A stretch of DNA of 62,539 nucleotides, from assembly GCA_041664285.1 (NCBI GenBank), contig JBAYLA010000005.1, positions 1 to 62,539 on the forward strand, written 5' to 3'. The stretch comes from Minisyncoccota bacterium (GTDB lineage: Bacteria > Patescibacteriota > Minisyncoccia > Phycocordibacterales > UBA9973). Under the pieces are notes generated by a model, which was not told the origin of the DNA, made no database searches, and saw nothing but the letters and a program-made list of their open reading frames with translations. Every line of letters begins with the position of its first letter. Position 1 is the first letter of the stretch. Of this stretch, positions 18,365 through 32,365 are shown one piece after another. The translations under genes were made by a program, and so were the position numbers.

Positions 18365-18790
18365 ATGATAATCAAAGTTAAAAAACTTAGGAAAGATGCA
18401 AAATTACCAACACATGGACATCCTGGTGATGCAGGGATGGATTTCTATTGTGTAGAAGACGTTATTTTCCATCCTGGCAAACAAGAAAGGGTTCATACTG
18501 GCGTGGCTATTGAAATTCCAGAGGGGCACGTTGGCTTGATATGGGATAAGTCTAGTATTTCTTTTAATTTAGGATTAAAGGTTATGGGTGGGGTAATCGA
18601 TTCGAGTTATAGAGGTGAAATTATTATGAATCTTTTAAATGTTTCGAATAAAGAAGTTTTAATAACCAAAGAACACAAAGTAGCTCAAATGGTAATTCAA
18701 AAATTTGAACATTGTGATATTGTAGAAGTGTCAGAAATTTCTCAAACTGTCCGTGGAGACAGACGTGAGGGAAGTACTGGTAAAAAATAG
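18365..18790 (+). CDS. dut: dUTP pyrophosphatase
   Basis: GDAGMDF, GVIDSSYRGEI, C-terminal RREGSTG. Confidence 0.85.
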   Translation: MIIKVKKLRKDAKLPTHGHPGDAGMDFYCVEDVIFHPGKQERVHTGVAIEIPEGHVGLIWDKSSISFNLGLKVMGGVIDSSYRGEIIMNLLNVSNKEVLITKEHKVAQMVIQKFEHCDIVEVSEISQTVRGDRREGSTGKK

Positions 18791-18791
18791 T

Positions 18792-20534
18792 ATGGAACAA
18801 GAAATAAAAAATTTAATAAAGGATGCTTTAAAAAATCTCGATATTGAAGTAAGTGATATTAAGCTTGAGCATCCAGAAGATTTTAAAAATGGAGATTATT
18901 CTACTAATGTAGCCTTAGCTATTGCTAAAAGTGTTGGTAGGAATCCAAAAGAGTTGGCAGAAAAAATAGTTGCTGAAATAATTAGACTAAATGTTGATAA
19001 AAACATAAAAAAGATTGAAATTGCTGGCAATGGTTTTATAAATTTTTATCTTTCTCGTAAATTTTTTGCAAGAAGTGTTGAAGAAATTTTAAATAAAGCA
19101 GAAAACTTTGGGAAAAACGATGCACTCGAGGGTAAAAAAATAATGGTGGAATATACTGACCCAAATCCTTTCAAGCCATTTCATATTGGACATCTAATGA
19201 GTAATGCAATTGGAGAATCTATTTCTCGTTTAGTTGAATTTTCTGGAGCTGAAACAAAACGAGCAAATTATCAAGGAGATCTTGGTTTGCATATAGCTAA
19301 AGCTGTCTATGGACTTTTAAAAAACAAAACATTGCAAACCAAAGAAGGAAACCATAATTTTCAAGCATTAAATATAGGGCAAGCCTATGTTGCTGGATCA
19401 GAAGCTTATGAAATTGACCAAAAAGCAAAAAAAGAAATTGATGAAATAAACAAAAAGATTTATGCGAGGAGTGATGAAAAAATAAACGAAATATATGAAT
19501 GGGGTTTCAAGGTAACAATGGAATCATTTGAAGATTTATATAAAATTCTAGGAACGAAATTTGACTTTTACTTTTTAGAAAGCGAAATGACAGATATTGG
19601 GCGAGATATTGTAAATGATAATTTAGATAAAGACGTGGGGCATGAGTATGGTAAAAGGATTTTCGAAGAGTCTGATGGGGCTATCGTTTTTAAAGCTGAG
19701 AAGTATGATCCTAAATTACACACTAGAGTTTTCATTACTTCGCAAGGCTTGCCAACATATGAAACAAAAGAGTTAGGCTTGACCATCGAGAAATTTAAAA
19801 CATACCCAGATATGCATTTATCTATTATGATTACCGCCAATGAACAGATGGATTATATGCGAGTCGTAGCAAAAGCCATTTCCCTTATTTGTCCTCAATA
19901 TGGCGAGAAGATGAAACATATTATTCATGGCATGATGCGTCTTACCACCGGCAAAATGGGTTCTCGTAAAGGTAATATAATTGCTGGAGAAACTCTTTTG
20001 AATGATGTTCGTGACAGTATTTTGGAAAAAATGACTGATCGAAATTTTTCAAGTGTTGAGCAAGAAAAAATTGCTTCAGATGTTGCCGTTTCTGCTATAA
20101 AATATTCAATACTTAAGCAGGGGACTGGCGGAGATATTATTTTTGATTTTGAGAAATCTATTTCTTTTGAAGGAGATTCTGGGCCATATTTGCAGTATTC
20201 TTATGCGCGCGCAAATTCTGTTTTAGAAAAAGCACAAAAAGAAAATATTTTGCCTGATCCCCATGCTTTTCTACCAGAGACTTTTGAAGTAGAAAAATTA
20301 TTGTATAAATTTCCAGAAGTTGTTTTTAGAGCTGCTTCCGAATATGAACCCCATTATATTGCTAATTATTTAATTGAAGTTGCTCGTGCTTATAATAGTT
20401 TTTATGGAAATACAATGATTGTGAACAAAGAAGACAAAACTTCTTCTTATAAAATTGCTCTAACTTATGCCTTTTCTTTTGTGATGAAAAATGGTCTGTA
20501 TCTCTTGGGCATAGAAGCTCCGAAGAAAATGTGA
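18792..20534 (+). CDS. argS: Arginyl-tRNA synthetase
   Basis: Class I HIGH motif PFHIGHL, about 580 aa. ATG 18792 chosen to avoid overlapping dut. Confidence 0.9.
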   Translation: MEQEIKNLIKDALKNLDIEVSDIKLEHPEDFKNGDYSTNVALAIAKSVGRNPKELAEKIVAEIIRLNVDKNIKKIEIAGNGFINFYLSRKFFARSVEEILNKAENFGKNDALEGKKIMVEYTDPNPFKPFHIGHLMSNAIGESISRLVEFSGAETKRANYQGDLGLHIAKAVYGLLKNKTLQTKEGNHNFQALNIGQAYVAGSEAYEIDQKAKKEIDEINKKIYARSDEKINEIYEWGFKVTMESFEDLYKILGTKFDFYFLESEMTDIGRDIVNDNLDKDVGHEYGKRIFEESDGAIVFKAEKYDPKLHTRVFITSQGLPTYETKELGLTIEKFKTYPDMHLSIMITANEQMDYMRVVAKAISLICPQYGEKMKHIIHGMMRLTTGKMGSRKGNIIAGETLLNDVRDSILEKMTDRNFSSVEQEKIASDVAVSAIKYSILKQGTGGDIIFDFEKSISFEGDSGPYLQYSYARANSVLEKAQKENILPDPHAFLPETFEVEKLLYKFPEVVFRAASEYEPHYIANYLIEVARAYNSFYGNTMIVNKEDKTSSYKIALTYAFSFVMKNGLYLLGIEAPKKM

Positions 20535-20560
20535 GAATAAAAAATCACTCTAATATATTT

Positions 20561-21232
20561 ATGGAAAAAATATCAAAACACAACAAAGAGAAAAAAAATT
20601 TTAAAAAAGAAATTCAATATAATGAAATTAAAGATTTTTTGCAACCTTTTGCTACCCTTGAAAAACCATACCATGATGGTCCTGACGGTATGAAAAAAGC
20701 TATACGTGATTGTAATTTGTCGGAAGATTTATCTAAAAAATTAAGTAAAATTACTAGTCGTGACGGACTTCATATATTAAGAATGTTAAAAAATTCTGAC
20801 ACAGAACGAGATTTTGCTATTGCTTATTTGAAATATAGAGATGATGTTTTAATAAAAAAAGGAGGACCATTGGGTAAAATAATTTCTGTAATAAATAGTG
20901 AGGGTCAAGATACGAAAATGTTTTGGACTTTTGCCCCATATCTTTTTAAGTGTTTTAAAAAAAATAATATTTCTGATCAAAAAATTATTGAGTTAATTCT
21001 TGAGTGGGCGAAGGATGGTGTGTCTGCAGGGACAGAATCTAAAAAGCAATTCAAGGAACAGGAAGATTATAATCAATTACATCTTAAAGGACTGGAAAAA
21101 TTTAATGAAGAAAATTCTAGAACATGGATATTAGATAAAAATTCTAATCATATTTCGCATATATTTACAGAGCAAGAGGCACAACGTATTGCGACTATTT
21201 TGATAAATGAAAATAAGAATAATTTTGATTAA
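20561..21232 (+). CDS. Hypothetical protein
   Basis: Long ORF with typical codon usage and no recognisable motif. The listed GTG 20531 start overlaps the argS stop, and ATG 20561 is the alternative start. Confidence 0.45.
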   Translation: MEKISKHNKEKKNFKKEIQYNEIKDFLQPFATLEKPYHDGPDGMKKAIRDCNLSEDLSKKLSKITSRDGLHILRMLKNSDTERDFAIAYLKYRDDVLIKKGGPLGKIISVINSEGQDTKMFWTFAPYLFKCFKKNNISDQKIIELILEWAKDGVSAGTESKKQFKEQEDYNQLHLKGLEKFNEENSRTWILDKNSNHISHIFTEQEAQRIATILINENKNNFD

Positions 21233-21309
21233 AGATTTAACCGAAGCAAGGTCTTGGGATTTGTTTTTTAGATATCGTGGATACAAAGAAAATGTAGTAG
21301 AATGATGCA

Positions 21310-22911
21310 GTGACTCAAGATCAAGCTTTAAATATTTTAAAAACTGGCGCAAATGTTTTCTTAACTGGTGAGCCAGGGGCGGGGAAAACTCATACTCTAA
21401 ATACTTTTGTAAATTATTTGCGTTCTTGTGGCGTAGAGCCGGCTATTACTGCTTCCACGGGGATTGCAGCGACGCACATTGGTGGGATGACTATTCATTC
21501 TTGGAGTGGAATCGGCATTAAAACAAAATTAGACAAATATGATTTAGATAAAATTGCGAGTAGTGAATATATCAGTAAGCGTGTTCGTCGGACACGAGTG
21601 CTGATAATTGATGAAATTTCTATGCTTTCCCCCCACATGCTCAATATGCTTAATGTTGTTTGTCGGGAAATAAAACAGAACGATGAACCTTTTGGTGGAA
21701 TACAAGTTGTTCTGGTTGGTGATTTTTTTCAATTACCACCGATTATAAGAAGAGATGTAAAAGAAAATAAACAAAATACACTTTCTCCAGAGGTCGGACC
21801 TATGGAAACTTTTGCTTACGGAAGCGTAGCTTGGGAAAGGGCGCGACCAGTTGTTTGTTATTTAAGGGAACAGCATCGTCAGGATGACGTAAATTTTCTT
21901 TCAGTCCTTTCAGCAATACGTGCTAATAATGCTTCTAAAGAACATTTAAATTATATTTTATCTCGTAAGATTGAGGTAGGTGACATCCCTCCAAATATTA
22001 CAAAACTTTTTTCACACAATGTGGATGTGGATTTAGTAAATAATAGAGAACTTGCGAAATTAGAAGAGGGAGTAAAATTATTTAAAATGTCTGAAAGTGG
22101 AAACGATAGGATGGTAGAAACTTTAAAGAAGGGATGTTTATCTCCAGAAAATTTGGAACTTAAAAAAGGCGCAGTGGTAATGTGCACAAAAAATAATCAA
22201 AAAGAAAGATTTGTGAATGGGACGCTAGGTACGGTGACGGACTTTGAAGAATTTAGTGGACATCCTATTATTAAAACCAAAAACGGACGTAGTATTACGA
22301 TTGCGCCGATGGATTGGACTGTAGAAGAAAATGGTAAAATTCGTGCGCAGATAACTCAGATTCCACTTCGATTGGCATGGGCGATAACCGTGCATAAGAG
22401 TCAGGGGATGAGTATGGATGCGGCGACCATGGATTTGTCACAAGTTTTTGAATTTGGGCAGGGCTATGTGGCTCTTTCACGAGTGCGCAGACTTTCTGGA
22501 CTTTATTTACTGGGGATAAACGAGCGTGCGCTTAAGGTACATCCAGAAATTTTAGAAAAAGATATTGATTTTAAAAATAAATCCAAAGAAGCAGAAAAAG
22601 TTTTTGGAAAACTCTCTCTAGATGATCTTAAAAAAATGCACAGTGATTTTATAATTGCATGTGGAGGGAAGACAAAAAAACAAATTAAAAAAGACACAAA
22701 AAGGGGTGCGCCGAGTACGGCGCACCCCAAATCTTTTTCCGAAATTCGAGAAAAACATCCCAATGCGTATCGTCCGTGGAGTAAAGAGCAAGACGAAGAA
22801 TTAAAAAAGTTATTTGTGGCTGGTGTTAAAATATCCGATTTGATGAAAAGTTTCGGAAGAAAAAGAGGAGGAATCACCGCTAGGCTTGAAAAACTGGGGT
22901 TAAAAAAATAA
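21310..22911 (+). CDS. Pif1/RecD-family SF1B helicase with C-terminal HTH-like tail
   Basis: GEPGAGKTH, LIIDEISM, GDFFQLPP, ITVHKSQG, YVALSR. GTG start. Confidence 0.8.
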   Translation: MTQDQALNILKTGANVFLTGEPGAGKTHTLNTFVNYLRSCGVEPAITASTGIAATHIGGMTIHSWSGIGIKTKLDKYDLDKIASSEYISKRVRRTRVLIIDEISMLSPHMLNMLNVVCREIKQNDEPFGGIQVVLVGDFFQLPPIIRRDVKENKQNTLSPEVGPMETFAYGSVAWERARPVVCYLREQHRQDDVNFLSVLSAIRANNASKEHLNYILSRKIEVGDIPPNITKLFSHNVDVDLVNNRELAKLEEGVKLFKMSESGNDRMVETLKKGCLSPENLELKKGAVVMCTKNNQKERFVNGTLGTVTDFEEFSGHPIIKTKNGRSITIAPMDWTVEENGKIRAQITQIPLRLAWAITVHKSQGMSMDAATMDLSQVFEFGQGYVALSRVRRLSGLYLLGINERALKVHPEILEKDIDFKNKSKEAEKVFGKLSLDDLKKMHSDFIIACGGKTKKQIKKDTKRGAPSTAHPKSFSEIREKHPNAYRPWSKEQDEELKKLFVAGVKISDLMKSFGRKRGGITARLEKLGLKK

Positions 22912-22964
22912 ATATTTATAATTTTTTTATTTATTAATTTACAACAATAACCACATAATTACAA

Positions 22965-22998
22965 TTTTTACATATACGCCATGGCGTATATGTAAAAA
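22965..22998. repeat. Perfect 34-nt palindrome upstream of the Cas2-like gene
   Basis: tttttacatatacgccatggcgtatatgtaaaaa. Confidence 0.9.
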
Positions 22999-23014
22999 TG
23001 AGTTATTATTAGAT

Positions 23015-23416
23015 ATGACTAATAAAAATAAAATTTATTATAAGGGGATGAGAGTGAACGCTTTTGGGTTGCCTGTTTTTAATCGTCCAAGAAAGGGACA
23101 AAATAAAAAAGTTCACGAAAGAGTTAGAAGTTTATATAATGTTTCATTTGTATCTTCTTTTAAAAAAGATGCTCCAAAAAAGTTAATCATTATGTATGAT
23201 ATTCCTTTTGGAATGAAAAAAGAAAGAGACTGGTTTCGTCGACATTTAATAAAATTTGGATACGTTATGATTCAAAAAAGTGTTTGGGTTGGACCCTCGC
23301 CTTTACCAAAGGATTTTCTTAATTATCTTAAAGAAATAAAAATTAAAAATAAGTTCAAAACTTTAAAATTAGCTAAGCCCTATAATTCTTACATATCAGC
23401 CATGGCTGATATGTAA
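23015..23416 (+). CDS. Cas2 / PaaX C-terminal-like fold protein (orphan)
   Basis: KKLIIMYDIPFGMKKERDWFRRHLIKFGYVMIQKSVWVGP resembles the YDI...R......L...G....Q.SVW pattern of Cas2/PaaX_C. Motif recognition only. Confidence 0.45.
   Translation: MTNKNKIYYKGMRVNAFGLPVFNRPRKGQNKKVHERVRSLYNVSFVSSFKKDAPKKLIIMYDIPFGMKKERDWFRRHLIKFGYVMIQKSVWVGPSPLPKDFLNYLKEIKIKNKFKTLKLAKPYNSYISAMADM
23389..23416. repeat. Perfect 28-nt palindrome covering the last codons and stop of the Cas2-like gene
   Basis: ttacatatcagccatggctgatatgtaa. Confidence 0.9.
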
Positions 23417-23421
23417 AGTTG

Positions 23422-23449
23422 ACTATTTTTATCTTTTAAAAATAGTTTT
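23422..23449 (+). terminator. Intrinsic terminator after the Cas2-like gene
   Basis: 10-bp stem actattttta / taaaaatagt followed by TTT. Confidence 0.6.
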
Positions 23450-23517
23450 CCACACTTTGTGTTAACTTTATTTGTAATTTGTGGGAAAATTAAAATATAT
23501 AAATAATTTTAAATTAA

Positions 23518-24855
23518 ATGCGTCTACGAAAATTAATTATTTTGTTTTCGTTTTTCTTTTTTATTAGTGCTTTTTTTATTTTTACTCCGAGAGTTTTTGC
23601 CACTACTTTTGTTGCTGATGATATTTTAGAAAATACCACATGGGGCTTAGCTGGTAGTCCGTATGTAATACAAGATGATATTATGGTTAATTCAGGAGTT
23701 ATATTAACTATCGAACCAGGAGTCATTGTGAAGGTTGCGCCACGAGATGGAGGTATAAATGTTCTAGGGACTCTTTTTGCAGAAGGGACGAGCGATGATC
23801 ATATCTACTTTACTTCTTTGTGGGATGATTCAATTGGAGGAGATACTAATGGAGATGGTAATACAACTGTGCCGATTGTCAGCCAATGGAACAGCAAAGG
23901 ACTTTGGTATGGGTGTAATTTTTATTTTCCTGAAGGGGTACATCTAAAAAATGTTGACGTTTCTTTTTCTACGCAAGGGCTTAATTTTTGGGCTACCGAT
24001 GCTTCAATTTCAAATTTTAGAGGCAGAAACAATAAGGTTGATTTAAGCATAAAAGCAAACAGCAATATTAATCTTTCTGGTGGTGACTTTTTTGGAGGAC
24101 TCTATGGTGCTATTCAATTAATGGAAAGTAGTTTGATTGCTGACAATCTTCAAATTGAAGGTGTCCAACAATACGAAGCAATAGAAACAGAAGTTAGTGA
24201 TCTTACTTTAACTGACTCAACTATTCAAAATCTTAAAAATAGAACTGAGGCTATCGGCACGGAAGGTCCAGGTATCATAAATTTTGAACGAGTAAATCTT
24301 AAAAATGCAAATAATATAGTTGGCTACACAGGAATTGAGTTTAATCTGAAAGATTCAGTTTTAGATAGTAGCTATATTCTTACTTGGGGTGAGTCTACTT
24401 TTAATATAGACAATAGTGTTATTAAAAATTATCATGGCCATGCCATAGAAGACTTTAACGAGGGTGACACTTTTAACATCACTAAGAGTAAAATTATAAA
24501 TAATGATTACGGTATTTATTTATATAAAGATACTAACGGATTTCCTCCCTCGGTTTTTAATATTTCAGATACAGTCATCTCTGGTAATTCTCAATATGGA
24601 GTTTATGGTCTAGCTTCTTATCCTATTGATTTTAAAAACGTTTGGTGGGGTGATACTTCTGGTCCGTATCATGACACTCTCAATCCAACAGGGTTAGGTA
24701 ATGCAGTTTCTGATAATGTTTTATTTGATCCGTGGTGTAAATATGAAAATTGCAAAGCTGGTTTTTCAAATGTTCTTTTTTACCTGGTATCGAAGCAAGT
24801 AGGTTGTATACACAAGGAATATTGGGTGAGGACAGATTGTGGGAACCGAATGTAA
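23518..24855 (+). CDS. Secreted right-handed beta-helix protein (probably the N-terminal part of a longer frame-shifted gene)
   Basis: Signal peptide. Repeated short beta-helix-like segments. The reading frame changes at the T6 run 24776-24781. Confidence 0.6.
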   Translation: MRLRKLIILFSFFFFISAFFIFTPRVFATTFVADDILENTTWGLAGSPYVIQDDIMVNSGVILTIEPGVIVKVAPRDGGINVLGTLFAEGTSDDHIYFTSLWDDSIGGDTNGDGNTTVPIVSQWNSKGLWYGCNFYFPEGVHLKNVDVSFSTQGLNFWATDASISNFRGRNNKVDLSIKANSNINLSGGDFFGGLYGAIQLMESSLIADNLQIEGVQQYEAIETEVSDLTLTDSTIQNLKNRTEAIGTEGPGIINFERVNLKNANNIVGYTGIEFNLKDSVLDSSYILTWGESTFNIDNSVIKNYHGHAIEDFNEGDTFNITKSKIINNDYGIYLYKDTNGFPPSVFNISDTVISGNSQYGVYGLASYPIDFKNVWWGDTSGPYHDTLNPTGLGNAVSDNVLFDPWCKYENCKAGFSNVLFYLVSKQVGCIHKEYWVRTDCGNRM

Positions 24856-26714
24856 ATAGTGATGTAGAAGATCTATATTTAAACCAAAGTGGACAATCTA
24901 TAAAAAATATTTATACGAAAGATGTTATTGATAAAGGATTAGGGATATCTCCAGTTTATGATTTATTTATAAAAAAGATGGATCAATTGATAGTTGATAA
25001 AAAAATTGGCGAATGGAAACCTTTTGCTTATGATTGGAGGCAAAGTGTTGATGATATTGTAAATAATGGAACGAAATATCAAATTGGTATAGTTTCACTA
25101 GTTGATACTTTGCAATCACTCATTGATTCATCTAAAAATGGGAAAGTTACTATTATTGCACATAGTAATGGTGGACTTTTAGCTAAAGCTTTACTAAAAA
25201 AATTACAAGATGATAAAGTTGCAAGAAGCAATAATTTGATTGATAAAATTGACAATATTGTTTTGATTGCTAGTCCTCAAGTTGGTACACCAGAAGCAAT
25301 ATTTGCTCTTTTGCATGGGTATAACCAGAAAATTTTAGGAGGTTTTTTGATGAATTCTCAAACTGCCCGTCAACTCGCCTTTAATATGCCATCAGGATAT
25401 GGACTTTTGCCTTCCGAAAAATATTATCAAACATCCACAACTCCAATAATTTCATTTGATCCCAATTCAAGTCTGTCGCAAATTGATGTAAATTATTACG
25501 GGAATGACGTAAATTCTTTTACCAAACAAAACGATTTTATTTTAGGGAAAGAAGGCAGAATAAATCCAGAAATATCAAATACAATACTGCCGATTATTGG
25601 AAACGAACAACTTTTAAATAAAAGCGAAGAATTACATAAAAAAATAGATAATTTAATTATTCCTTCTAATATAAAATTAATTCAGTTGGCGGGATGGGGG
25701 AAAGATACTTTGGTTGGTATAAAATATGTAGAAAAAACGGCTTGTGATTATCCTATTTTTGGATTAAACATTTGTATACCAAAAAAGATTTTGGATATTA
25801 GACCAATTACAGACATGAATGGAGATAAAACAGTTGTCGCACCAAGTGCTTTATATGATGACCAAGGAGAAAAATATTGGTTAGATTTAAGCAGTTCAAA
25901 ATTGGAACACAAAAACATCTTTGAAGACAGTTCTACTTTGCAATTTATTGAGAACATAATAACAAAAAATACACTTGTGACAAATAAAATATACCAACAA
26001 AAACAACCATATATAAAAAACAGAAATAAAATATCTGTTCATTCTCCGGTTACTCTTGGGGCTTACGATTCGCTTGGAAACTTTACAGGTAAAATTTGTC
26101 CTGAAGAAAATTCCGACTTTTGCCAAATCATAGAAGATATACCCAATTCTTTTTATCTAGAATTTGGAGAGGGGAAATACCTTAATGTAGATGAAAATGA
26201 AATGAATAAAATAGTTCTTAAGGGTACAGATATTGGTACATTTACCTATGAATCAGAAAAAGTTTTACCAACAGGAGAATCAACCGTTATTTCATTTATA
26301 GATATTCCAACTACGTCCCAAACTACAGCCGAAATAACTACAAATCCAAATACTCAAACTCAAGAACTAAAATTGGACATAAATAGTGATGGAATAATGG
26401 ATATTACACTTCAACCAAATAATACATTTGATTCAGTCATATATTTACAGGTCATGAGAAAAACTATTGAAAATCTAGACATAACAAAGGCACGAAAAAA
26501 TGGTTTTCTAAATAGAATAGATAATACAATAAAAGCAATAGAAAAAGGTAAAATAGTAAAATCCAAATTGAAAGTTGAAAGGTTTATGAATGTTTTAGAA
26601 AAAATAGCAGACAAAAAAGAATCAAAAAAACAAAAACCCCATCAATTATCAAAAACCGAAGCAGAACAATTATTAGTTATGTTGGATCAATTATTAATTA
26701 ATTTGAATAAATAA
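24750..26714 (+). CDS. Alpha/beta-hydrolase (lipase/LCAT-like) ORF lacking its own ATG
   Basis: LPGIEASRLY near the ORF start and nucleophile elbow IIAHSNGGLL. The only start candidate is TTG 24750, inside the upstream ORF. Confidence 0.55.
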   Translation: MQSWFFKCSFLPGIEASRLYTQGILGEDRLWEPNVNSDVEDLYLNQSGQSIKNIYTKDVIDKGLGISPVYDLFIKKMDQLIVDKKIGEWKPFAYDWRQSVDDIVNNGTKYQIGIVSLVDTLQSLIDSSKNGKVTIIAHSNGGLLAKALLKKLQDDKVARSNNLIDKIDNIVLIASPQVGTPEAIFALLHGYNQKILGGFLMNSQTARQLAFNMPSGYGLLPSEKYYQTSTTPIISFDPNSSLSQIDVNYYGNDVNSFTKQNDFILGKEGRINPEISNTILPIIGNEQLLNKSEELHKKIDNLIIPSNIKLIQLAGWGKDTLVGIKYVEKTACDYPIFGLNICIPKKILDIRPITDMNGDKTVVAPSALYDDQGEKYWLDLSSSKLEHKNIFEDSSTLQFIENIITKNTLVTNKIYQQKQPYIKNRNKISVHSPVTLGAYDSLGNFTGKICPEENSDFCQIIEDIPNSFYLEFGEGKYLNVDENEMNKIVLKGTDIGTFTYESEKVLPTGESTVISFIDIPTTSQTTAEITTNPNTQTQELKLDINSDGIMDITLQPNNTFDSVIYLQVMRKTIENLDITKARKNGFLNRIDNTIKAIEKGKIVKSKLKVERFMNVLEKIADKKESKKQKPHQLSKTEAEQLLVMLDQLLINLNK

Positions 26715-26715
26715 T

Positions 26716-27075
26716 ATGAAAAATTTATCATCATGGGTTTTTAGAGTGATTTTGTTGTTTTTAGTTGCTTCTTTTGTTTTATTTTTTTTAAATCCAGGAT
26801 TTATAGTACAATTATATGTTTTATATTATATATATTTTATACCATTTTTTGTTGCATTAATCTTAATAGATTATTTCTTCAATAAAAATATCAATAAAAA
26901 ATATTTTTATTTGTCTATTATTATTATTTTCATTTTTATTTCTTTAAAATTTGTTCTTGAATATTGGTTTAATAATTCATTTAATATTTTGGCTTACTTT
27001 AGTAAAGTAGATAAGAAAATAGTAGGTATTAAGCGTATTTTAATTGGGAAATTACCAGAACCGTTCTTTCTTTAA
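26716..27075 (+). CDS. Small integral membrane protein
   Basis: Three to four hydrophobic segments. Starts 2 nt after the upstream stop. Confidence 0.5.
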   Translation: MKNLSSWVFRVILLFLVASFVLFFLNPGFIVQLYVLYYIYFIPFFVALILIDYFFNKNINKKYFYLSIIIIFIFISLKFVLEYWFNNSFNILAYFSKVDKKIVGIKRILIGKLPEPFFL

Positions 27076-27233
27076 AGACTTTGGCAGTCAATAAGGTTTT
27101 TCTTGTATTAGCTTCGAAAAAGATGTAAGTTTCTGATTTAGGTAACTTTAGTTTATAATTAATAGGAAAGGTTCTTAAATAACTTATTTTGTTTTCGTAG
27201 ATTTATGATATCTACGAAACAGAAAGGAGAAAA

Positions 27234-27431
27234 ATGAAACTGAGGAAAGATAGATTTTACTATTGCGCAAAAGACACAAAAGACAACAAAGTATCAATAG
27301 AAAAAATTAAATCCCATTGTGCACCGAAAGGATGCACAAATTTAATGTCAGAAGCGAGGAGAAAACCTCGCGAAAAATGGCAAAAGAAATTTTCTCCAAA
27401 AAAAAGAGCTACGAGTTATGCAAGAGTTTAA
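27234..27431 (+). CDS. Small basic hypothetical protein (65 aa)
   Basis: AGGAGA Shine-Dalgarno 27225-27230, 3 nt (aaa) upstream of the ATG. A 9-bp hairpin lies at 27194-27218 just upstream. Confidence 0.4.
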   Translation: MKLRKDRFYYCAKDTKDNKVSIEKIKSHCAPKGCTNLMSEARRKPREKWQKKFSPKKRATSYARV

Positions 27432-27519
27432 GTATCGTAGATCCTAATATCAAAGTTTAAGGAGACGAGTTATTCATTTAGCTTGTCTTCTTTTATTTGT
27501 AATGTTATATTTTATACAC

Positions 27520-27699
27520 AAGCGTTGAAGGGGTAATCACCTCGGAGCTTCGGGAAGAAAATAAGTAGAACCCGACGGGTAAGCCCGTTATAGCCTTAAT
27601 GAGAAGTCCCGTCAAAGGCGGGTAGAAAACAAGGTGGTACCACGGCGAAGTCCGTCCTTGCGCAATTAATTTTTTAGTTGCACGAGGACGGACTTTTTA
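27520..27699 (+). promoter_or_regulatory. T-box leader (tRNA-sensing riboswitch) controlling ileS, with intrinsic terminator
   Basis: T-box sequence AAGGUGGUACCACGG at 27631-27645. Stem III-like hairpin at 27608-27623. Terminator stem 27649-27665 / 27678-27694 followed by a U tract. Candidate Ile specifier AUC-A at 27536-27539. Confidence 0.75.
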
Positions 27700-27718
27700 T
27701 TTAGCTTATTTTAAGAAT

Positions 27719-30700
27719 ATGGAAGAAAAAGATACAAAGAAAAAAAGTGAAACAGCTCTTCGTGAAGAGCGTGTTTTAGAATTTTGGAAAGAAAGTAAAA
27801 TTTTTTCGAAGACCCTGAGTGCAACGAAGGGGAAAAAAGAATTTATTTTTTACGAAGGTCCACCAACTGCCAATGGCAAGCCAGGGATACATCATTTAGA
27901 AGCGCGAGCGTTTAAAGACGCTATTCCTAGATATAAAACTATGAAGGGTTTTCATGTTCGCCGAAAGGGTGGATGGGATACTCATGGATTACCGGTAGAG
28001 CTTCAAGTGGAAAAAAAGCTTGGACTCAATTCAAAAAAAGCAATTGAAGAATATGGTATTGCGAAATTTAATCAGGAGTGCAAAGAAAGTGTTTGGGAGT
28101 ATTTAGAAGTTTGGAATGATTTTACTAAACGGATTGGTTATTGGGTGGATCAAGAAAATCCATATGTAACATATCACAATGATTATATTGAGTCTGTTTG
28201 GAGTGTTATCAAAAAAATAAATGATCAGAATTTACTTTATAAAGATTATAAGGTTGTGCCTTGGTGTCCAAGGTGTGGAACGGCTCTTTCTTCACACGAA
28301 CTTGCGCAGGGGTATGAAGATGTAAAAGATTTATCGGTGTATGTAAAGTTTAAGATAACTGCTCGGGTACAGAAAAATTCTGCCGCTTTACCCGCAAGCG
28401 GGCTCCGACACGAACAAAATTTTTCTGCACCCGAGCAGTTTGTGCTCGCTTGGACGACAACCCCGTGGACTTTGCCGGGGAATGTAGCACTAGCTGTTGG
28501 TGAAAATATTGATTATGTAAAAATAAAAAAACCTGCCTCGCCGGCGGGCGGGGAAAATGAACTTTTAATTCTTGCAAAATATAGGCTTGCTGTAATAGAC
28601 GGGGAATATGAGGTGCTAGAAGAATTTAAAGGTAAAGATTTAATTGGTTTAGAATATGAACCCTTATACCCATATTTAGAAAATATTATTTCTGAAAGTG
28701 AAAAACCAAAATTAGAAAAAGCATATAAAGTTTACGGAGCAGATTTTGTCACCACTGAAGAGGGCACAGGAGTAGTGCATACGGCTGTAATGTACGGACA
28801 GGATGATTTTGAACTTGGCACAAAGATTGGTCTGCCGAAGCATCACTTGGTTGGTTTGGATGGAAAATTTTTGCCAGGGACAGGAATATTCGAAGGCAGG
28901 TTTGTACGAGACGAAGAGGTTGCAGTTGATGTCATTAAAGATTTAGCCCACAGAGGACTTCTGTTGAAAAAAGAAAAATACGAACACCCTTATCCTCATT
29001 GCTGGAGATGTAAAACAGCGCTTGTTTATTATGCTCGAGATTCTTGGTATATCAAAGTTTCTGATTCGAAAATAAAAGAAAAGATGGTGGAGGAGAACAA
29101 AGAAATAAATTGGGAACCAGCACATATTCGTGATGGGCGTTTTGGACAATGGCTGGAGGAGATTAAGGATTGGGCAATTTCTCGCGAAAGATATTGGGGG
29201 ACACCCCTTCCAGTTTGGATTTGTGAAACTTGTAAGAAGATTGATGTTGTTGGAAGCATTGAAGATATAAAAGAAAAAACAAAAAAATCTGGTAATAAAT
29301 ATTTTGTGATGAGACACGGTGAATCAGAGAGCAATACAGGGAAAATTATTATAAGATGTAATCCAAAAAGTAAAGATTGTTTGACAAAAAAAGGCAGAGA
29401 ACAAGTTCTGAATTCAATAGAAGAGATAAAAAGTAAAAATATTGATGTGATCATATCTTCTGATTTTATAAGAACTAAAGAAACTGTTGAAATAATAAAA
29501 GAAAAAATTAATTTTAAAGGAGAAATTGTTTTTGATGAGAGAGTTAGAGAATTTAATGTTGGGATATTTGATGGAAAAACTTGGGAGGAATATATTGCTT
29601 TTGCATCTCATAAGTACAATTATACGTTTATCGCTGAAGGGGGAGAATCATGGAAACAGATGAGAGAACGAATGATTGATCAAATATATGATTTAGAGAA
29701 AAAATATAAGAATAAAAATATATTAATAGTGTCTCATGCGGGTCCATTAAGGGCACTTTTTGCTGGATTAGAAAGTAATGATAAACAAGAAATTGAAAAG
29801 AAATTATCCGAAAAAGAATATGTGAGTTTTAAAAATGCTGAAATTAAAGAACTTAATTTTGTCCCTCTTCCACATAATGAAAATTACGAACTTGATTTAC
29901 ATCGACCATACATTGATGAAGTGAAGCTTGTTTGCGTCCATTCGACCTCCTCAGGGTCTTCTTGTGGTGGAAATTTAGTAAGAACGAAAGAAGTGATGGA
30001 TGTCTGGCTAGACTCTGGCTGTATGCCTTTTGCTCAAGATCATTATCCATTTGAGAATAGAAAGTGGGTAGAAGGGGTGGGTTATCCTGCTGATTTTATC
30101 TCTGAAGCGATTGATCAGACTCGAGGATGGTTTTATACGCTTCATGCTATTGGTGTATTGGTGGGGAGAGGCAAAGCTTATAAAAACGTTATTTGTTTAG
30201 GACATTTACTGGACGCAAAAGGGAAAAAGATGTCTAAATCTCTCGGTAATATTGTTGATCCATGGGAGATGATGGATAAATACGGCGTAGATACACTGCG
30301 TCTCTGGATGTACTCGGTTAATCAACCAGGTGAGTCTAAAAACTTTGATGAAAAAACAGTTGCCCTACTTCATCAACAAGTTTTTACTTTGCTCTACAAT
30401 GTGCTGGTGTTTTATGAACTTTATCGAGATAAAAATTTAGAAATAAACAGTAGACCTAATTCAAAAAATATTTTAGACCAATGGATTCTAGCACGACTGG
30501 ATGAATTGATTGATGAATCTACAAAAAAAATGGATGATTACAAATTGCTGGAACCAGTCAGAGGAATAAAAGATTTTATTGGTGACCTTTCTACTTGGTA
30601 TTTGCGTCGTTCACGCGAACGTATTAAAGAAGGAGACAGAGAAGCGAAAGCAACTTTATATTTTGTGTTAAAAACTCTTACTAAAATTATGGCTCCTTTT

Positions 30701-31786
30701 GCTCCGTTTACAGCAGAAGATATTTGGCTGAAATTAAAAACAGACAATGATAAAGAAAGTGTGCATCTAGAAAATTGGCCTTCCAAACCGTTTAAATTAT
30801 TCTCTTTTGGCAAGACAAATATAATAGATGAGATGGAAATGGTTAGAAAGATTGTTACCTTAGGGCTTGAGGCAAGACAACAAGCTGGAATTAAAGTGCG
30901 TCAGCCTCTCGCTTCGCTCAAGCTGAAAGTTGAAAGTAAGAAGTTATCAAGTGAATATACTGATTTAATTAAAGATGAATTGAACGTAAAAGAAATTATT
31001 TTTAATAACTCTATTACAAACGAAGTTGAGTTGGATATAAATATTACTCCAGCACTCAAGGCAGAGGGAGAGTATCGTGAGTTTATGAGGGAACTTCAAG
31101 ATCAAAGAAAAAAGCTTGGCCTTAACCCAGGGGACAAGATGCCTATGAGCATTGAAACAATATACAAAAAATACAAAATCACGCCGAATCTACAAGAGCA
31201 CATGCTACGAACGGCGGCAGTTGCATCTTTAATTTGTGATAATTTTACTGAGCCATTACAAAAAGAAGAAATTATTATCGCTTGCTTGCTTCATGATATG
31301 GGGAATATTGCAAAATTTGACATGAATGTTTTTCCAGAATCTTTTGAGCCTGAGGGGGTGGAATATTGGCAGGGGGTAAAAGAAGAATTTATAAAAAAAT
31401 ATGGAAAAGATCAGCATGAAACAACGATAAAAATTATGCAAGAACTTGGTTTACCCGATAATCTGGTTTTACTCGCTGGCCGAAACAGTTTTTCATTAAT
31501 TTGTGAGCACCGCGATAGTAGTGATATTAATATGAAAATAGTCCATTATGCTGATGGGCGAGTTGATCCATGTGGAGTTGTTTCTTATGACGAGCGTATG
31601 GATGAAGCTAAAGGTCGCTATAAACTAAAAAGTCGAGTTGAAGAAGAAGAACGAGAAAGGTTAACTCAATGTGGCAAAGACATAGAAAAACAAATTTTTG
31701 CTAAATGCAAAATAAAACCAGAAGATATAAATAATAAAACCGTTGCCCCCATAATCTTAGAATTAAAAAATTTCATTATAAAATAA
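27719..31786 (+). CDS. ileS: Isoleucyl-tRNA synthetase fused to an internal histidine-phosphatase domain and a C-terminal HD phosphohydrolase domain
   Basis: [30 protein letters not shown]. Internal FVMRHGESESN...VSHAGPLRAL (about 29288-29880). C-terminal QEHMLRT...LLHDMGN...VHYADGRVD (about 31150-31783). Confidence 0.9.
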   Translation: MEEKDTKKKSETALREERVLEFWKESKIFSKTLSATKGKKEFIFYEGPPTANGKPGIHHLEARAFKDAIPRYKTMKGFHVRRKGGWDTHGLPVELQVEKKLGLNSKKAIEEYGIAKFNQECKESVWEYLEVWNDFTKRIGYWVDQENPYVTYHNDYIESVWSVIKKINDQNLLYKDYKVVPWCPRCGTALSSHELAQGYEDVKDLSVYVKFKITARVQKNSAALPASGLRHEQNFSAPEQFVLAWTTTPWTLPGNVALAVGENIDYVKIKKPASPAGGENELLILAKYRLAVIDGEYEVLEEFKGKDLIGLEYEPLYPYLENIISESEKPKLEKAYKVYGADFVTTEEGTGVVHTAVMYGQDDFELGTKIGLPKHHLVGLDGKFLPGTGIFEGRFVRDEEVAVDVIKDLAHRGLLLKKEKYEHPYPHCWRCKTALVYYARDSWYIKVSDSKIKEKMVEENKEINWEPAHIRDGRFGQWLEEIKDWAISRERYWGTPLPVWICETCKKIDVVGSIEDIKEKTKKSGNKYFVMRHGESESNTGKIIIRCNPKSKDCLTKKGREQVLNSIEEIKSKNIDVIISSDFIRTKETVEIIKEKINFKGEIVFDERVREFNVGIFDGKTWEEYIAFASHKYNYTFIAEGGESWKQMRERMIDQIYDLEKKYKNKNILIVSHAGPLRALFAGLESNDKQEIEKKLSEKEYVSFKNAEIKELNFVPLPHNENYELDLHRPYIDEVKLVCVHSTSSGSSCGGNLVRTKEVMDVWLDSGCMPFAQDHYPFENRKWVEGVGYPADFISEAIDQTRGWFYTLHAIGVLVGRGKAYKNVICLGHLLDAKGKKMSKSLGNIVDPWEMMDKYGVDTLRLWMYSVNQPGESKNFDEKTVALLHQQVFTLLYNVLVFYELYRDKNLEINSRPNSKNILDQWILARLDELIDESTKKMDDYKLLEPVRGIKDFIGDLSTWYLRRSRERIKEGDREAKATLYFVLKTLTKIMAPFAPFTAEDIWLKLKTDNDKESVHLENWPSKPFKLFSFGKTNIIDEMEMVRKIVTLGLEARQQAGIKVRQPLASLKLKVESKKLSSEYTDLIKDELNVKEIIFNNSITNEVELDINITPALKAEGEYREFMRELQDQRKKLGLNPGDKMPMSIETIYKKYKITPNLQEHMLRTAAVASLICDNFTEPLQKEEIIIACLLHDMGNIAKFDMNVFPESFEPEGVEYWQGVKEEFIKKYGKDQHETTIKIMQELGLPDNLVLLAGRNSFSLICEHRDSSDINMKIVHYADGRVDPCGVVSYDERMDEAKGRYKLKSRVEEEERERLTQCGKDIEKQIFAKCKIKPEDINNKTVAPIILELKNFIIK
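28358..28439. repeat. GC-rich palindromic element inserted in frame in ileS
   Basis: 22-nt arms actgctcgggtacagaaaaatt / aatttttctgcacccgagcagt (21 of 22 complementary). Inner hairpin cccgcaagcggg. Confidence 0.7.
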
Positions 31787-32365
31787 ATGCATCACATTTA
31801 TCACACGGAGGGAATAATTTTGGGAAGTAAAAATTACGGAGAGGCAGGGAAATATTATGCTGTTTTTACACGTGACTTGGGGATGATTTACGCCTCGGCA
31901 CAAGGTGTTCGCAAGATGTCTTCGAAATTGCGTTTTGTGTTGCAAGACTTTGCTTATGTAAAAATAGACCTTGTGCAAGGAAAAGATTTTTGGCGCTTAA
32001 CTAGCGCTTCCAAGACAAATAAATTAGAAAAGATTGTGAAAAATCCTGGAACTTTTGAAGTTTTTTCTAACATTGCTAAATTGTTAAAAAGATTACTAGC
32101 GGGGATAGAGCCGAACGAGGCTTTATTTCTTGATTTAATAAATGGTTTAACTGTTTTAGAAAAGGCTAAAGTAGAACACTTAAGAAATGTTGAAGCTGTT
32201 ATTGTCCTGAGGATATTAGATAATTTAGGGTATATTGGTGGAGACAAAGCTTTGCAAAATATAACCAAATCTCCTTTTGAAGAGAATTTAATATTTGAAT
32301 TTTCAAAATCAAGATCTCAAGTGTTACGTCAAATCAACAAAGCTCTGAAGGAGACACATTTATAA
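31787..32365 (+). CDS. recO: DNA repair protein RecO (short form)
   Basis: N-terminal OB-fold pattern HTEGIILGSKNYGEAGKYYAVFTRDLGMIYASAQGVRK. Confidence 0.6.
   Translation: MHHIYHTEGIILGSKNYGEAGKYYAVFTRDLGMIYASAQGVRKMSSKLRFVLQDFAYVKIDLVQGKDFWRLTSASKTNKLEKIVKNPGTFEVFSNIAKLLKRLLAGIEPNEALFLDLINGLTVLEKAKVEHLRNVEAVIVLRILDNLGYIGGDKALQNITKSPFEENLIFEFSKSRSQVLRQINKALKETHL

Follow-up and report, generated by a model that had tools for sequence, protein, structure and literature searches.

An isoleucyl-tRNA synthetase of Patescibacteria with an inserted histidine phosphatase and a fused HD phosphohydrolase, apparently assembled from captured flanking genes

The locus described here raises the question of how an essential synthetase comes to carry two further enzymes in the same chain, and what those enzymes might do. 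The DNA analysed ("the window") is a stretch of 62,539 nucleotides (nt) from a Minisyncoccota bacterium (GenBank assembly GCA_041664285.1, contig JBAYLA010000005.1), and the gene in question is ileS, encoding an isoleucyl-tRNA synthetase (IleRS). A model's first reading of the letters alone ("the original prediction") had proposed one uninterrupted 1355-codon open reading frame (ORF) in which a histidine phosphatase is inserted into the synthetase and an HD-superfamily hydrolase follows at the C terminus. We found that a single polypeptide does combine the full core of a probable type 2 IleRS (IleRS2) with two entire further enzymes, a histidine phosphatase and an HD hydrolase, and that all catalytic residues are kept. 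Three points go beyond the original prediction: both modules are captured flanking genes, the HD module replaces about 62 residues of the ARD3 domain, and the gene is preceded by a predicted Ile T-box leader. The synthetase itself has the following parts.

27719..31786, forward strand: ileS-hisPhos-HD, a single 1355-codon frame, stop included; probable type 2 IleRS with His_Phos insert and HD fusion
27719..29284, forward strand: N-terminal half of IleRS, comprising the Rossmann first half, the CP1 editing domain, CP2 and the first half of the CP3 zinc knuckle (from Pfam, NCBIfam and the alignment with 8c8w)
27884-27895, forward strand: GIHH (GXHH) signature, residues G56-I-H-H59, at the HIGH position and non-canonical
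28451-28477, forward strand: WTTTPWTLP, CP1 editing motif
28763-28807, forward strand: GTGVVH..YGQDD, CP1 editing motif
29222-29233, forward strand: CETC, C502-x2-C505, first half of the zinc knuckle
29867..31138, forward strand: second half of IleRS, comprising the second zinc-knuckle half, the Rossmann second half, the anticodon-binding domain and a truncated C-terminal domain
29888-29917, forward strand: ELDLHRPYID
29933-29965, forward strand: C739...C749, second half of the zinc knuckle
30227-30241, forward strand: KMSKS, residues 837-841
residues 1127-1135: QDQRKKLGL, G34-pocket motif, at the end of the truncated C-terminal domain

Translation of 27719-31786 gave no interruption in 1355 codons. 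When the whole protein was searched against Pfam, tRNA-synt_1 was matched with E=4e-115 but broken into two stretches, Anticodon_1 was matched at residues 920-1064, and DUF5915 at residues 1061-1150, the last through profile positions 60-149 of 195 alone. The NCBIfam ileS equivalog TIGR00392 was passed with 856.7 bits against a cut-off of 621.4, and the editing motifs and KMSKS are intact, as the original prediction had read for WTTTPWTLP and KMSKS. The synthetase core averages 77% identity among 120 homologues. Because the closest solved relatives in a PDB search were Priestia megaterium IleRS2 (8c8w, E=7.7e-225) and Thermus thermophilus IleRS (1ile), the protein is probably of type 2. At the C-terminal end DUF5915 is partial and the pocket motif is present, and the roughly 62 residues that come after it in unfused relatives are replaced by the HD module. 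In IleRS2 the GXHH swap is functional and gives mupirocin hyper-resistance (PMC10485003). These features, the Ile T-box leader and the conserved ileS synteny slot (both described below) together indicate that the ORF is very probably the organism's housekeeping, tRNA-Ile-responsive IleRS, of type 2 and a GXHH variant. That the protein charges tRNA-Ile has indirect support from the Ile specifier of the T-box and from the conserved synteny position.

The first additional module interrupts the synthetase at the zinc knuckle.

29285..29866, forward strand: inserted His_Phos branch 1 domain, residues 523-716 (from Pfam, AlphaFold2 (AF2), Foldseek, conservation and alignment to the standalone protein P0253)
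R532, H533, N539, R585, E611, R651, H673: catalytic set of the insert
29312-29320, forward strand: RHG motif

To fix the boundaries (residues ~523-716) we compared the protein with P0105, a relative that has no insert, and with P. megaterium IleRS2. P0105 reads ...GSIEELKEKTK-NKLPLNDKKELDLHRPYID... at a point where the window protein has about 194 extra residues; in P. megaterium IleRS2 the site falls between chain residues 475 and 479, inside CP3. In T. thermophilus IleRS, CP3 joins CP2 to the second Rossmann half and bears the zinc motif (PMC7191050). The insert therefore lies at the tip of the CP3 zinc-knuckle hairpin, between C502-x2-C505 and C739...C749, and the predicted His_Phos domain between WICETCKK and DLHRPYID (PF00300, E=1.4e-30) stands, with its bounds refined to nt 29285-29866.

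Pfam matched His_Phos_1 to residues 529-693 with 106.8 bits against a cut-off of 21.7 (E=1.4e-30). An AF2 model of residues 497-760 was confident, with a predicted local distance difference test score (pLDDT) of 94.5, and in Foldseek the insert resembled phosphatases of about 200 residues, namely PspA, GpgP (Rv2419c), PhoE and TIGAR (E~1e-11, template modelling (TM) score ~0.75 on the target). The insert is thus a complete phosphatase fold, a matter for which the original prediction had called for a structural model. Its active site is strongly conserved: R532, H533, G534, S581, R585, R651 and H673 are kept in 83/83 insert-bearing sequences, and N539 and E611 each in 82/83. Mean pairwise identity is only 42% in the phosphatase domain, compared with 77% in the synthetase core, and this combination of low identity with invariant catalytic residues marks a scaffold that evolves quickly around an active site that is kept. 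The zinc cysteines beside the insert, on the other hand, persist in only about half of the 83 sequences, so the knuckle appears to have been lost repeatedly while the phosphatase site stayed invariant. In the other half, approximately, none of the four zinc cysteines remains. In the window protein the second knuckle half is C-x9-C (with VHSTSSGSS between the cysteines), and most relatives have C-x-C.

Branch-1 histidine phosphatases are typically phosphomonoesterases or mutases, and we compared the insert with the curated families of both kinds. In NCBIfam it fell below the cut-offs of the cofactor-dependent phosphoglycerate mutases (TIGR01258, NF038349; dPGM_arch 87.8 bits against 225, pgm_1 24.2 against 81.7), of CobC (76.2 against 162.9), of PspA (59.7 against 350) and of SixA (28.4 against 74.5). 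The free-standing hisPhos proteins encoded next to ileS in other genomes likewise fell below the CobC, PspA and SixA equivalog cut-offs. After the catalytic Glu the family has the motif EF.VG.F.GK / EFNVG.F.GK, which resembles PhoE-type phosphatases; the mutase motif at this position differs from EFNVG.F.GK. Since every curated equivalog cut-off was missed, the insert is best placed in an uncharacterised subfamily of the phosphatase-type (PhoE-like) group. The window also encodes TIM and PGK, and we considered whether the insert could be the cell's phosphoglycerate mutase; as a family assignment this was rejected, since the mutase cut-offs were missed and the motifs are phosphatase-like.

The second additional module forms the C terminus of the protein.

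31139..31783, forward strand: fused HD-superfamily phosphohydrolase module, residues 1141-1355, with its own Met-Pro start
H1161, H1192-D1193, D1279: HD metal ligands
31292-31297, forward strand: HD motif

The domain was matched by Pfam PF01966 at residues 1160-1269, with 29.7 bits in the whole protein and 34.1 bits in the module alone against a cut-off of 22. An HD hydrolase had been predicted here and is present, but it begins at Met1141 (nt 31139) and not near 31150. Every motif quoted in the original prediction, among them the RHG at 29312-29320 and the HD at 31292-31297, is found where it had been placed, and the Pfam check that it proposed returned tRNA-synt_1, His_Phos_1, Anticodon_1 and HD all above cut-off. 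The AF2 model of the module is all-helical, with a pLDDT of 93.9. H1161, H1192, D1193 and D1279 are invariant in alignment A1 (59 sequences: the window module and 58 standalone HD proteins), conservation of H1161 and D1279 in the fused proteins reaches at least 98%, and the only invariant histidines of the HD alignment are H22 and H53 in module numbering. These data suggest a site with the four ligands H..HD..D, probably of the mononuclear type.

When the C-terminal 218 residues were used as a query, more than 1000 matches were obtained, and the top 120 were nearly all free-standing HD proteins of about 215 residues with 54-70% identity. An exhaustive profile search gave 1,561 clusters at 50% identity, 615 of them with E<=1e-30. 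Subfamily identification by structure, sequence or profile search of the PDB was tried and returned only generic HD-fold matches. Foldseek found PgpH, HDOD, YqeK-like, GlyRS beta and YfbR structures at TM 0.3-0.46, and likewise only generic likeness to 2ogi (E=0.08) and MESH1 (E=0.84); the best PDB sequence-profile match was HDDC2 (4l1j, E=0.0036), through the first ~55 residues only. HD_3 (PF13023) scored 24.6 bits on the isolated module and 21.0 in the full protein, with a cut-off of 22.5. The YfbR-like family (PF12917, 14.1 bits against 25.9) and the 5'-deoxynucleotidase equivalog (NF003009, 12.5 against 122) were below their cut-offs, and no NCBIfam, Pfam or PDB sequence match of the YqeK-type Ap4A (diadenosine tetraphosphate) hydrolase or SpoT-Mesh1 kind was found for the module. 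The HD family also occurs in other architectures, namely a tandem HD-HD protein of 439 amino acids (aa) and a fusion of signal peptidase II (LspA) with HD of 372 aa (P0311 and P0335, respectively); as a clue to function these proved uninformative.

To assess how widespread the layout is, we took the 119 best database matches (60-77% identical) from NCBI, JGI, ENA and Logan assemblies. His_Phos (PF00300) is present in 118 of these 119 homologues and the HD fusion as well in 38; this is the outcome of the search of relatives for the same architecture that the original prediction had proposed. The 38 HD-fused clusters are 60-77% identical and have one junction in all cases where it can be read (22/38). 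In a scan of GTDB species representatives the full insert was present in at least 80 species loci, with 37-59% identity over the insert region; the carriers are labelled Nomura-, Zambryski-, Taylor-, Wolfe-, Adlerbacteria or Paceibacterota. The layout is, by these comparisons, the standard IleRS of a large Paceibacteria lineage, and common rather than rare. That a chimeric assembly or a sequencing frameshift joined separate genes, for which one could argue only from the general liability of metagenome assemblies to chimerism, is for practical purposes refuted by the identical insert site in 118/119 best homologue clusters and in 80 GTDB species genomes, drawn from dozens of assemblies made independently, by the recurrence of the HD architecture in 38 clusters with a common, non-trivial junction, and by the nature of the fusion, which is a deletion of about 186 nt rather than a stop-codon slip.

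The original prediction had also called the architecture new. This stands in part: full-text literature searches for this layout turned up no IleRS described as carrying either a histidine phosphatase or an HD domain, and a 2026 preprint on C-terminal remodelling of IleRS does not mention a phosphatase/HD architecture. It fails in that such proteins are widespread in Paceibacteria and already lie in public databases, annotated as "class I tRNA ligase family protein" or "isoleucyl-tRNA synthetase" with the architecture unremarked.

Where did the phosphatase come from? A search with the insert alone retrieved standalone proteins of about 189-207 aa at 38-44% identity, of which P0253 aligns with the insert from end to end. 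In the four Patescibacteria contexts examined in which ileS has no insert and encodes about 960-980 aa, a standalone hisPhos gene adjoined ileS every time, as listed here.

L089, L091: argS - hisPhos - ileS, with hisPhos and ileS overlapping by 4 nt
L093: argS - hisPhos - HIT - ileS
L094: argS - hisPhos, then convergent ileS

In three of the four lineages hisPhos thus stands between argS and ileS, with its end overlapping or near the ileS start. A more distant hisPhos homologue in another genomic setting had no link to ileS. The 80 insert-bearing loci all lack a separate hisPhos gene, and about 20 of them have argS directly abutting ileS. The free gene and the insert are therefore mutually exclusive, which fits the relocation of one gene into the ileS frame. 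We conclude that the His_Phos module is a captured ileS-flanking gene and that the capture was an old event common to many Paceibacteria. In a distance tree P0105, which has no insert, falls among proteins that have one, and no hisPhos gene lies close to its ileS. P0105 is probably a secondary, clean loss, and a clean loss implies that the IleRS scaffold does not need the insert.

The HD module has a similar history on the other side of the gene. In 4/4 contexts examined a standalone HD gene lies immediately 3' of an insert-bearing ileS, overlapping its stop codon by up to 8 nt, starting a few bases away, or following an intervening HAD gene. An HD gene follows ileS in only 2 of the 80 broader GTDB loci, so the link between ileS and HD is confined to a sub-clade that includes the window. 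Unfused proteins end in ...RKK.GLTPSD plus 62 further residues. In the fused proteins whose junction can be read, ...RKK.GL.PGDK-M.MSIE.IYKKYKIMP.LQEHMLR leads into the Met-Pro start of the HD protein, and the same 22 also carry the derived upstream signature AEGEYREFMRELQD; the common junction and this signature argue for a single fusion origin. The HD module is thus a captured flanking gene fused in frame at its own start codon, probably in a single, younger event within the sub-clade. Judged by the alignments, the fusion did not slip past a stop codon and instead deleted about 62 C-terminal residues (~186 nt) of ARD3/DUF5915. In P. megaterium IleRS2 the G34 pocket consists of Q961, R964, K965 and L969, and R964A abolishes charging (bioRxiv 10.64898/2026.02.03.703510). 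The pocket motif QxxRKxxxL is present in 119/120 homologues and is retained in the window protein, five residues before the junction. The deleted segment is the distal part of ARD3, which reads the wobble base, and its deletion implies that the HD body sits in its place, beside the anticodon and far from the CCA end.

One result speaks against a single fusion: a neighbour-joining (NJ) tree of the IleRS core (P0001-P0120) interleaves HD-fused and unfused proteins. This tree is star-like and poorly resolved, and it was rejected as a means of counting fusion events. Its conflict with the identical junctions may reflect either the lack of resolution or recombination between lineages. In the insert region the unfused P0010 is 81% identical to the window protein, and the fused P0002 59%. 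At the junction itself (31118-31160) the HD Met-Pro start is retained, with a purine-rich AGGGGA before it. The Met1141 position is variable, being Leu in P0049. Internal initiation at Met1141 may yield a free HD protein.

Upstream of ileS we identified a candidate regulatory leader.

27516..27662, forward strand: T-box leader with ultrashort Stem I (RF00230, 64.9 bits, E=1e-13, gathering score 93)
27530-27543: Stem I hairpin, whose loop presents AUC(A), the Ile specifier
27631-27644: T-box core AAGGUGGUACCACG
27650..27702, forward strand: terminator hairpin GUCCGUCCUUGCGCAA ... UUGCACGAGGACGGAC, then a U-run; read from the sequence and conserved in aligned leaders

The terminator hairpin ends 17 nt 5' of the ileS ATG. 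The RF00230 score is under the threshold because Stem I is reduced to a 14-nt hairpin, and standard annotation would therefore miss the leader. Homologous leaders occur 5' of ileS in 12 distinct related loci (13 with L002, a near-duplicate); wherever the hairpin is included the AUCA loop is invariant, and its stem shows covariation. No such leader was detected in L004, L097, L007 or the lineages without the insert. The window ileS thus appears to be transcribed behind a predicted Ile-specific T-box leader.

The window (GC content 34.7%) has a gene content typical of Patescibacteria: PilB/PilC (type IV pilus), ComEC, TIM-PGK, RecJ, RNase H, SHMT, NUDIX-Tmk-dUTPase, ArgRS, a dimeric GlyRS, MetRS, RecA, FtsK and large PG_binding/PKD surface proteins. 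Across its 62.5 kb there is no tRNA gene and no Rfam family at the gathering threshold. The ileS gene occupies a conserved slot in the order argS - ileS - recO - x - glyS - M16 peptidase - AI-2E - metG, and its neighbours are as follows.

18753..20534, forward strand: argS, the conserved upstream synteny partner, here about 7 kb from ileS
21310-22911: Pif1-like helicase, in the argS-ileS interval
23015-23416: PaaX/Cas2-like protein, in the argS-ileS interval
24750-26714: LCAT-like alpha/beta hydrolase, in the argS-ileS interval
argS-ileS interval, other contents: proteins of 233 aa and 445 aa without assignment, and small ORFs
31787..32365, forward strand: recO, the conserved downstream partner, which begins at the base right after the ileS-HD stop codon

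recO is found beside ileS in 67/80 insert-bearing loci. In relatives argS is direct or close, and in the window about 7 kb (20531-27718) separate it from ileS; this interval looks like an insertion into the conserved block. A HAD-family (phosphoglycolate-phosphatase/PpaX-like) gene recurs on one side or the other of the standalone HD gene (ileS-HAD-HD or ileS-HD-HAD) within the sub-clade (L004 7401-8000, L096 5649-6275); the window has no such gene. Three related loci encode a conserved protein of about 170-180 aa, unmatched in Pfam, in the gap that separates HD (or HAD) from recO (L001 8656-9162, L004 8713-9225, L096 6285-6830), and no homologue of it was found in the window. In one Moranbacteria metagenome-assembled genome a HIT (HinT-like) hydrolase gene lies between the standalone hisPhos and ileS (L093 6611-7063). 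We considered a general "phosphohydrolase island" around ileS and rejected it, as HAD (2/80 loci), NUDIX (4/80) and HIT (0/80) genes are sporadic. Membership of a defence system was likewise rejected, PADLOC having given generic Cas3-HD motif matches only.

What, then, would the two modules do? The catalytic residues of both are invariant, so three kinds of active site are likely, and we propose a trifunctional polypeptide that would combine aminoacylation and editing with a phosphohistidine-type phosphatase and a mononuclear HD hydrolase. The two extra sites would act on small phosphomonoesters, be they nucleotide-type or metabolite, and their hydrolysis would be independent of aminoacylation; small-molecule or nucleotide phosphomonoesters are, on family likeness, the most likely substrates. 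The linkage would serve co-expression under the control of tRNA-Ile charging and would also reflect genome compaction, that is, the fusion of tightly packed, overlapping genes. The HD body would structurally replace the lost part of ARD3 beside the tRNA wobble base. We hold this explanation as a whole, captured genes together with independent hydrolysis of small phosphomonoesters, with moderate confidence; its architectural and evolutionary part merits much more, and its substrate part much less.

Several points weigh against it. Gene order is conserved here even for unrelated genes (recO in 67/80 loci), so that adjacency is weak evidence for or against functional coupling. The substrate assignment is inferred. 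Two separate captures of phosphohydrolases, one of which demanded insertion into a catalytic domain, could point to a mechanistic tie to IleRS. Finally, the loss of about 62 ARD3 residues might impair tRNA binding; in other IleRSs, C-terminal truncations abolish transfer (PMC11685878).

A mechanistic tie could take the form of a built-in quality-control or repair stage of the synthetase, in which the modules might, for instance, strip terminal or cyclic phosphates from damaged tRNA-Ile or destroy a phosphorylated by-product or inhibitor. We consider this unlikely. If it were true, the hisPhos-ileS-HD trio of Patescibacteria would constitute a new accessory step of tRNA-Ile charging. The original prediction had suggested Ap4A or alarmone hydrolysis and tRNA 3'-end processing; both are possible, and nothing that we found specifically favours either.

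Less likely again is end-healing of tRNA, in which the HD module would open 2',3'-cyclic phosphates and the His_Phos module would strip the 2'/3'-phosphate, so that tRNA-Ile was repaired and charged on one enzyme. In E. coli the HD domain of the CCA-adding enzyme acts both as a 2',3'-cyclic phosphodiesterase and as a phosphatase, which would suit this role. In many genomes the two modules are physically joined to an enzyme that binds tRNA, and they would be made under the control of uncharged tRNA-Ile through the T-box. A His_Phos fusion to a nucleic-acid enzyme is known, the NCBIfam "bifunctional RNase H/acid phosphatase" being among the matches to the insert, and HAD-type phosphatase genes recur beside HD. 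The geometry, however, is unfavourable, as the HD module joins IleRS at ARD3, on the anticodon side, about 70 A from the CCA end (PMC11685878). Nor are the modules specifically basic (median isoelectric point (pI) 5.9 for the inserts and 5.6 for the HD modules); some standalone hisPhos proteins do have a basic pI, which in their genomes holds for the proteome at large, and RNA binding was therefore not to be read from charge. No kinase or ligase partner occurs in the neighbourhoods examined, the HD module has no specific likeness to the HD domains of the CCA enzyme or GlyRS beta (Foldseek E=0.16, TM ~0.35), and the closest relatives of the insert are small-molecule phosphatases.

We think it just as improbable that the modules clear adenylate-type compounds that IleRS makes or that are aimed at it, hydrolysing Ap4A or related dinucleotides, alarmones, pyrophosphate or toxic mimics of the aminoacyl-adenylate. 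Aminoacyl-tRNA synthetases (aaRSs) do make Ap4A. Thin support comes from the HIT gene between hisPhos and ileS in the Moranbacteria locus, from Parcubacteria HIT enzymes, which can detoxify aminoacyl-adenylate antibiotics (PMC7157772), and from the GXHH motif, which is tied to resistance to a natural IleRS inhibitor (PMC10485003) and suggests a history of inhibitor pressure. On the other side, the HD module has the H..HD..D ligands only and lacks the extra histidines of the binuclear diesterases. Such enzymes (YqeK, PgpH) carry additional histidine ligands. Furthermore, neither module matched a YqeK, SpoT/HD_4, ApaH or Nudix family; branch-1 phosphatases, as noted, are typically monoesterases or mutases; and the HIT, NUDIX and HAD neighbours are sporadic.

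It is quite improbable that the modules are non-catalytic expansions, that is, structural or tRNA-binding scaffolds in which the HD body merely substitutes for the deleted part of ARD3. That body does take the place of about 62 anticodon-reading residues directly after the G34 pocket motif, the insert has been cleanly lost in P0105, and bacterial GlyRS beta carries an HD domain for which a scaffold role has been proposed. But a scaffold would not explain why the phosphatase catalytic residues are kept in all or all but one of 83 sequences at 42% identity, why the HD ligands never vary in standalone forms and, as far as tabulated for fused forms, are conserved to at least 98%, or why both modules also exist free-standing at equal length. 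The remaining alternative, a protein phosphatase of the PGAM5/Sts/SixA kind that guards the synthetase by removing inhibitory phosphorylation, for example by HipA-like kinase toxins, draws on the insertion into the catalytic domain and on the existence of His_Phos protein phosphatases and of kinase toxins that phosphorylate aaRSs, and is very improbable given that no examined neighbourhood has a kinase gene, that likeness to SixA is marginal (28 bits against 74.5) and that the standalone orthologues are ordinary small PhoE-like enzymes.

The aaRSs are among the most conserved and best-studied enzymes, and new domains in them have repeatedly pointed to editing, signalling or complex assembly. 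Throughout a lineage of ultra-small bacteria, one of class rank, an essential synthetase houses a whole and apparently active enzyme within its catalytic domain, and here another enzyme has taken over part of the module for reading the wobble base of the tRNA. The locus offers a clear natural case of domain insertion through capture of a neighbouring gene and a further form of the "C-terminal remodelling" of IleRS that was described recently. It also defines two uncharacterised phosphohydrolase families, one PhoE-like within His_Phos and the other an HD family of about 215 aa with some 1,500 clusters at 50% identity, and their tight genetic tie to ileS makes the function of both experimentally approachable. 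If the activities are coupled to charging, they would represent a new accessory step in translation; if not, the protein would illustrate how multifunctional proteins arise through the compaction of a genome.

Compared with known systems, the T-box leader belongs with a class that has an ultrashort Stem I and lies upstream of actinobacterial ileS. Like those, it presents AUC in the terminal loop, has the conserved core and precedes ileS. Its expression platform resembles a transcription terminator with a U-run, whereas that of the actinobacterial ileS T-box is a sequestered ribosome-binding site; unlike the actinobacterial examples it occurs in a Patescibacterium and scores below the Rfam gathering threshold.

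The synthetase is homologous over its full length to type 2 IleRSs (P. megaterium 8c8u-8c8w, T. thermophilus 1ile), with a partial match to DUF5915 and without a C-terminal zinc-binding domain, and it has in common with them the CP3 zinc knuckle as in T. thermophilus, GIHH as one of the GXHH variants and the G34 pocket QxxRKxxxL. It differs from them in the enzyme domain of about 194 aa between chain positions 475 and 479, and in the 215-aa HD enzyme that replaces the last ~62 residues of ARD3. Neither the insert nor the HD fusion was present in any solved or described IleRS found in the searches made.

The insert shares fold, size and the catalytic RHG..N, R, E and H with PhoE (1h2e, 1ebb), PspA (4ij5), Rv2419c (4qih) and TIGAR (3dcy), but it is only 19-25% identical to them and is embedded in ileS or encoded beside it. 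The HD module has the H..HD..D set and the length of about 200 aa of the HD_3/YfbR-HDDC2 5'-nucleotidases. Its motif is HDMGN, while YfbR has HD..E; TM to the YfbR/HDDC2 type is only 0.3-0.4 in Foldseek, and unlike that type the family has its own highly conserved C-terminal tail, ..CKIKPEDIN...

Each element of the design has a partial counterpart elsewhere. An IleRS with an N-acetyltransferase (GNAT) domain is described by NF040702, a model with a cut-off of 1999 bits, of which the window protein reaches 357, and whose GNAT domain it lacks. The RNase H/acid phosphatase of NF005567 (Rv2228c/RnhC type) is a precedent for His_Phos; there the domain is appended, and in the window it is inserted into a catalytic fold. 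GlyRS beta and the CCA-adding enzyme are precedents for HD domains, with only generic fold matches to the HD module of the window. The architecture is one that would surprise a synthetase specialist and is tractable, and the general idea behind it has precedents in the GNAT-IleRS, the RNase H/phosphatase and the HD domain of GlyRS beta.

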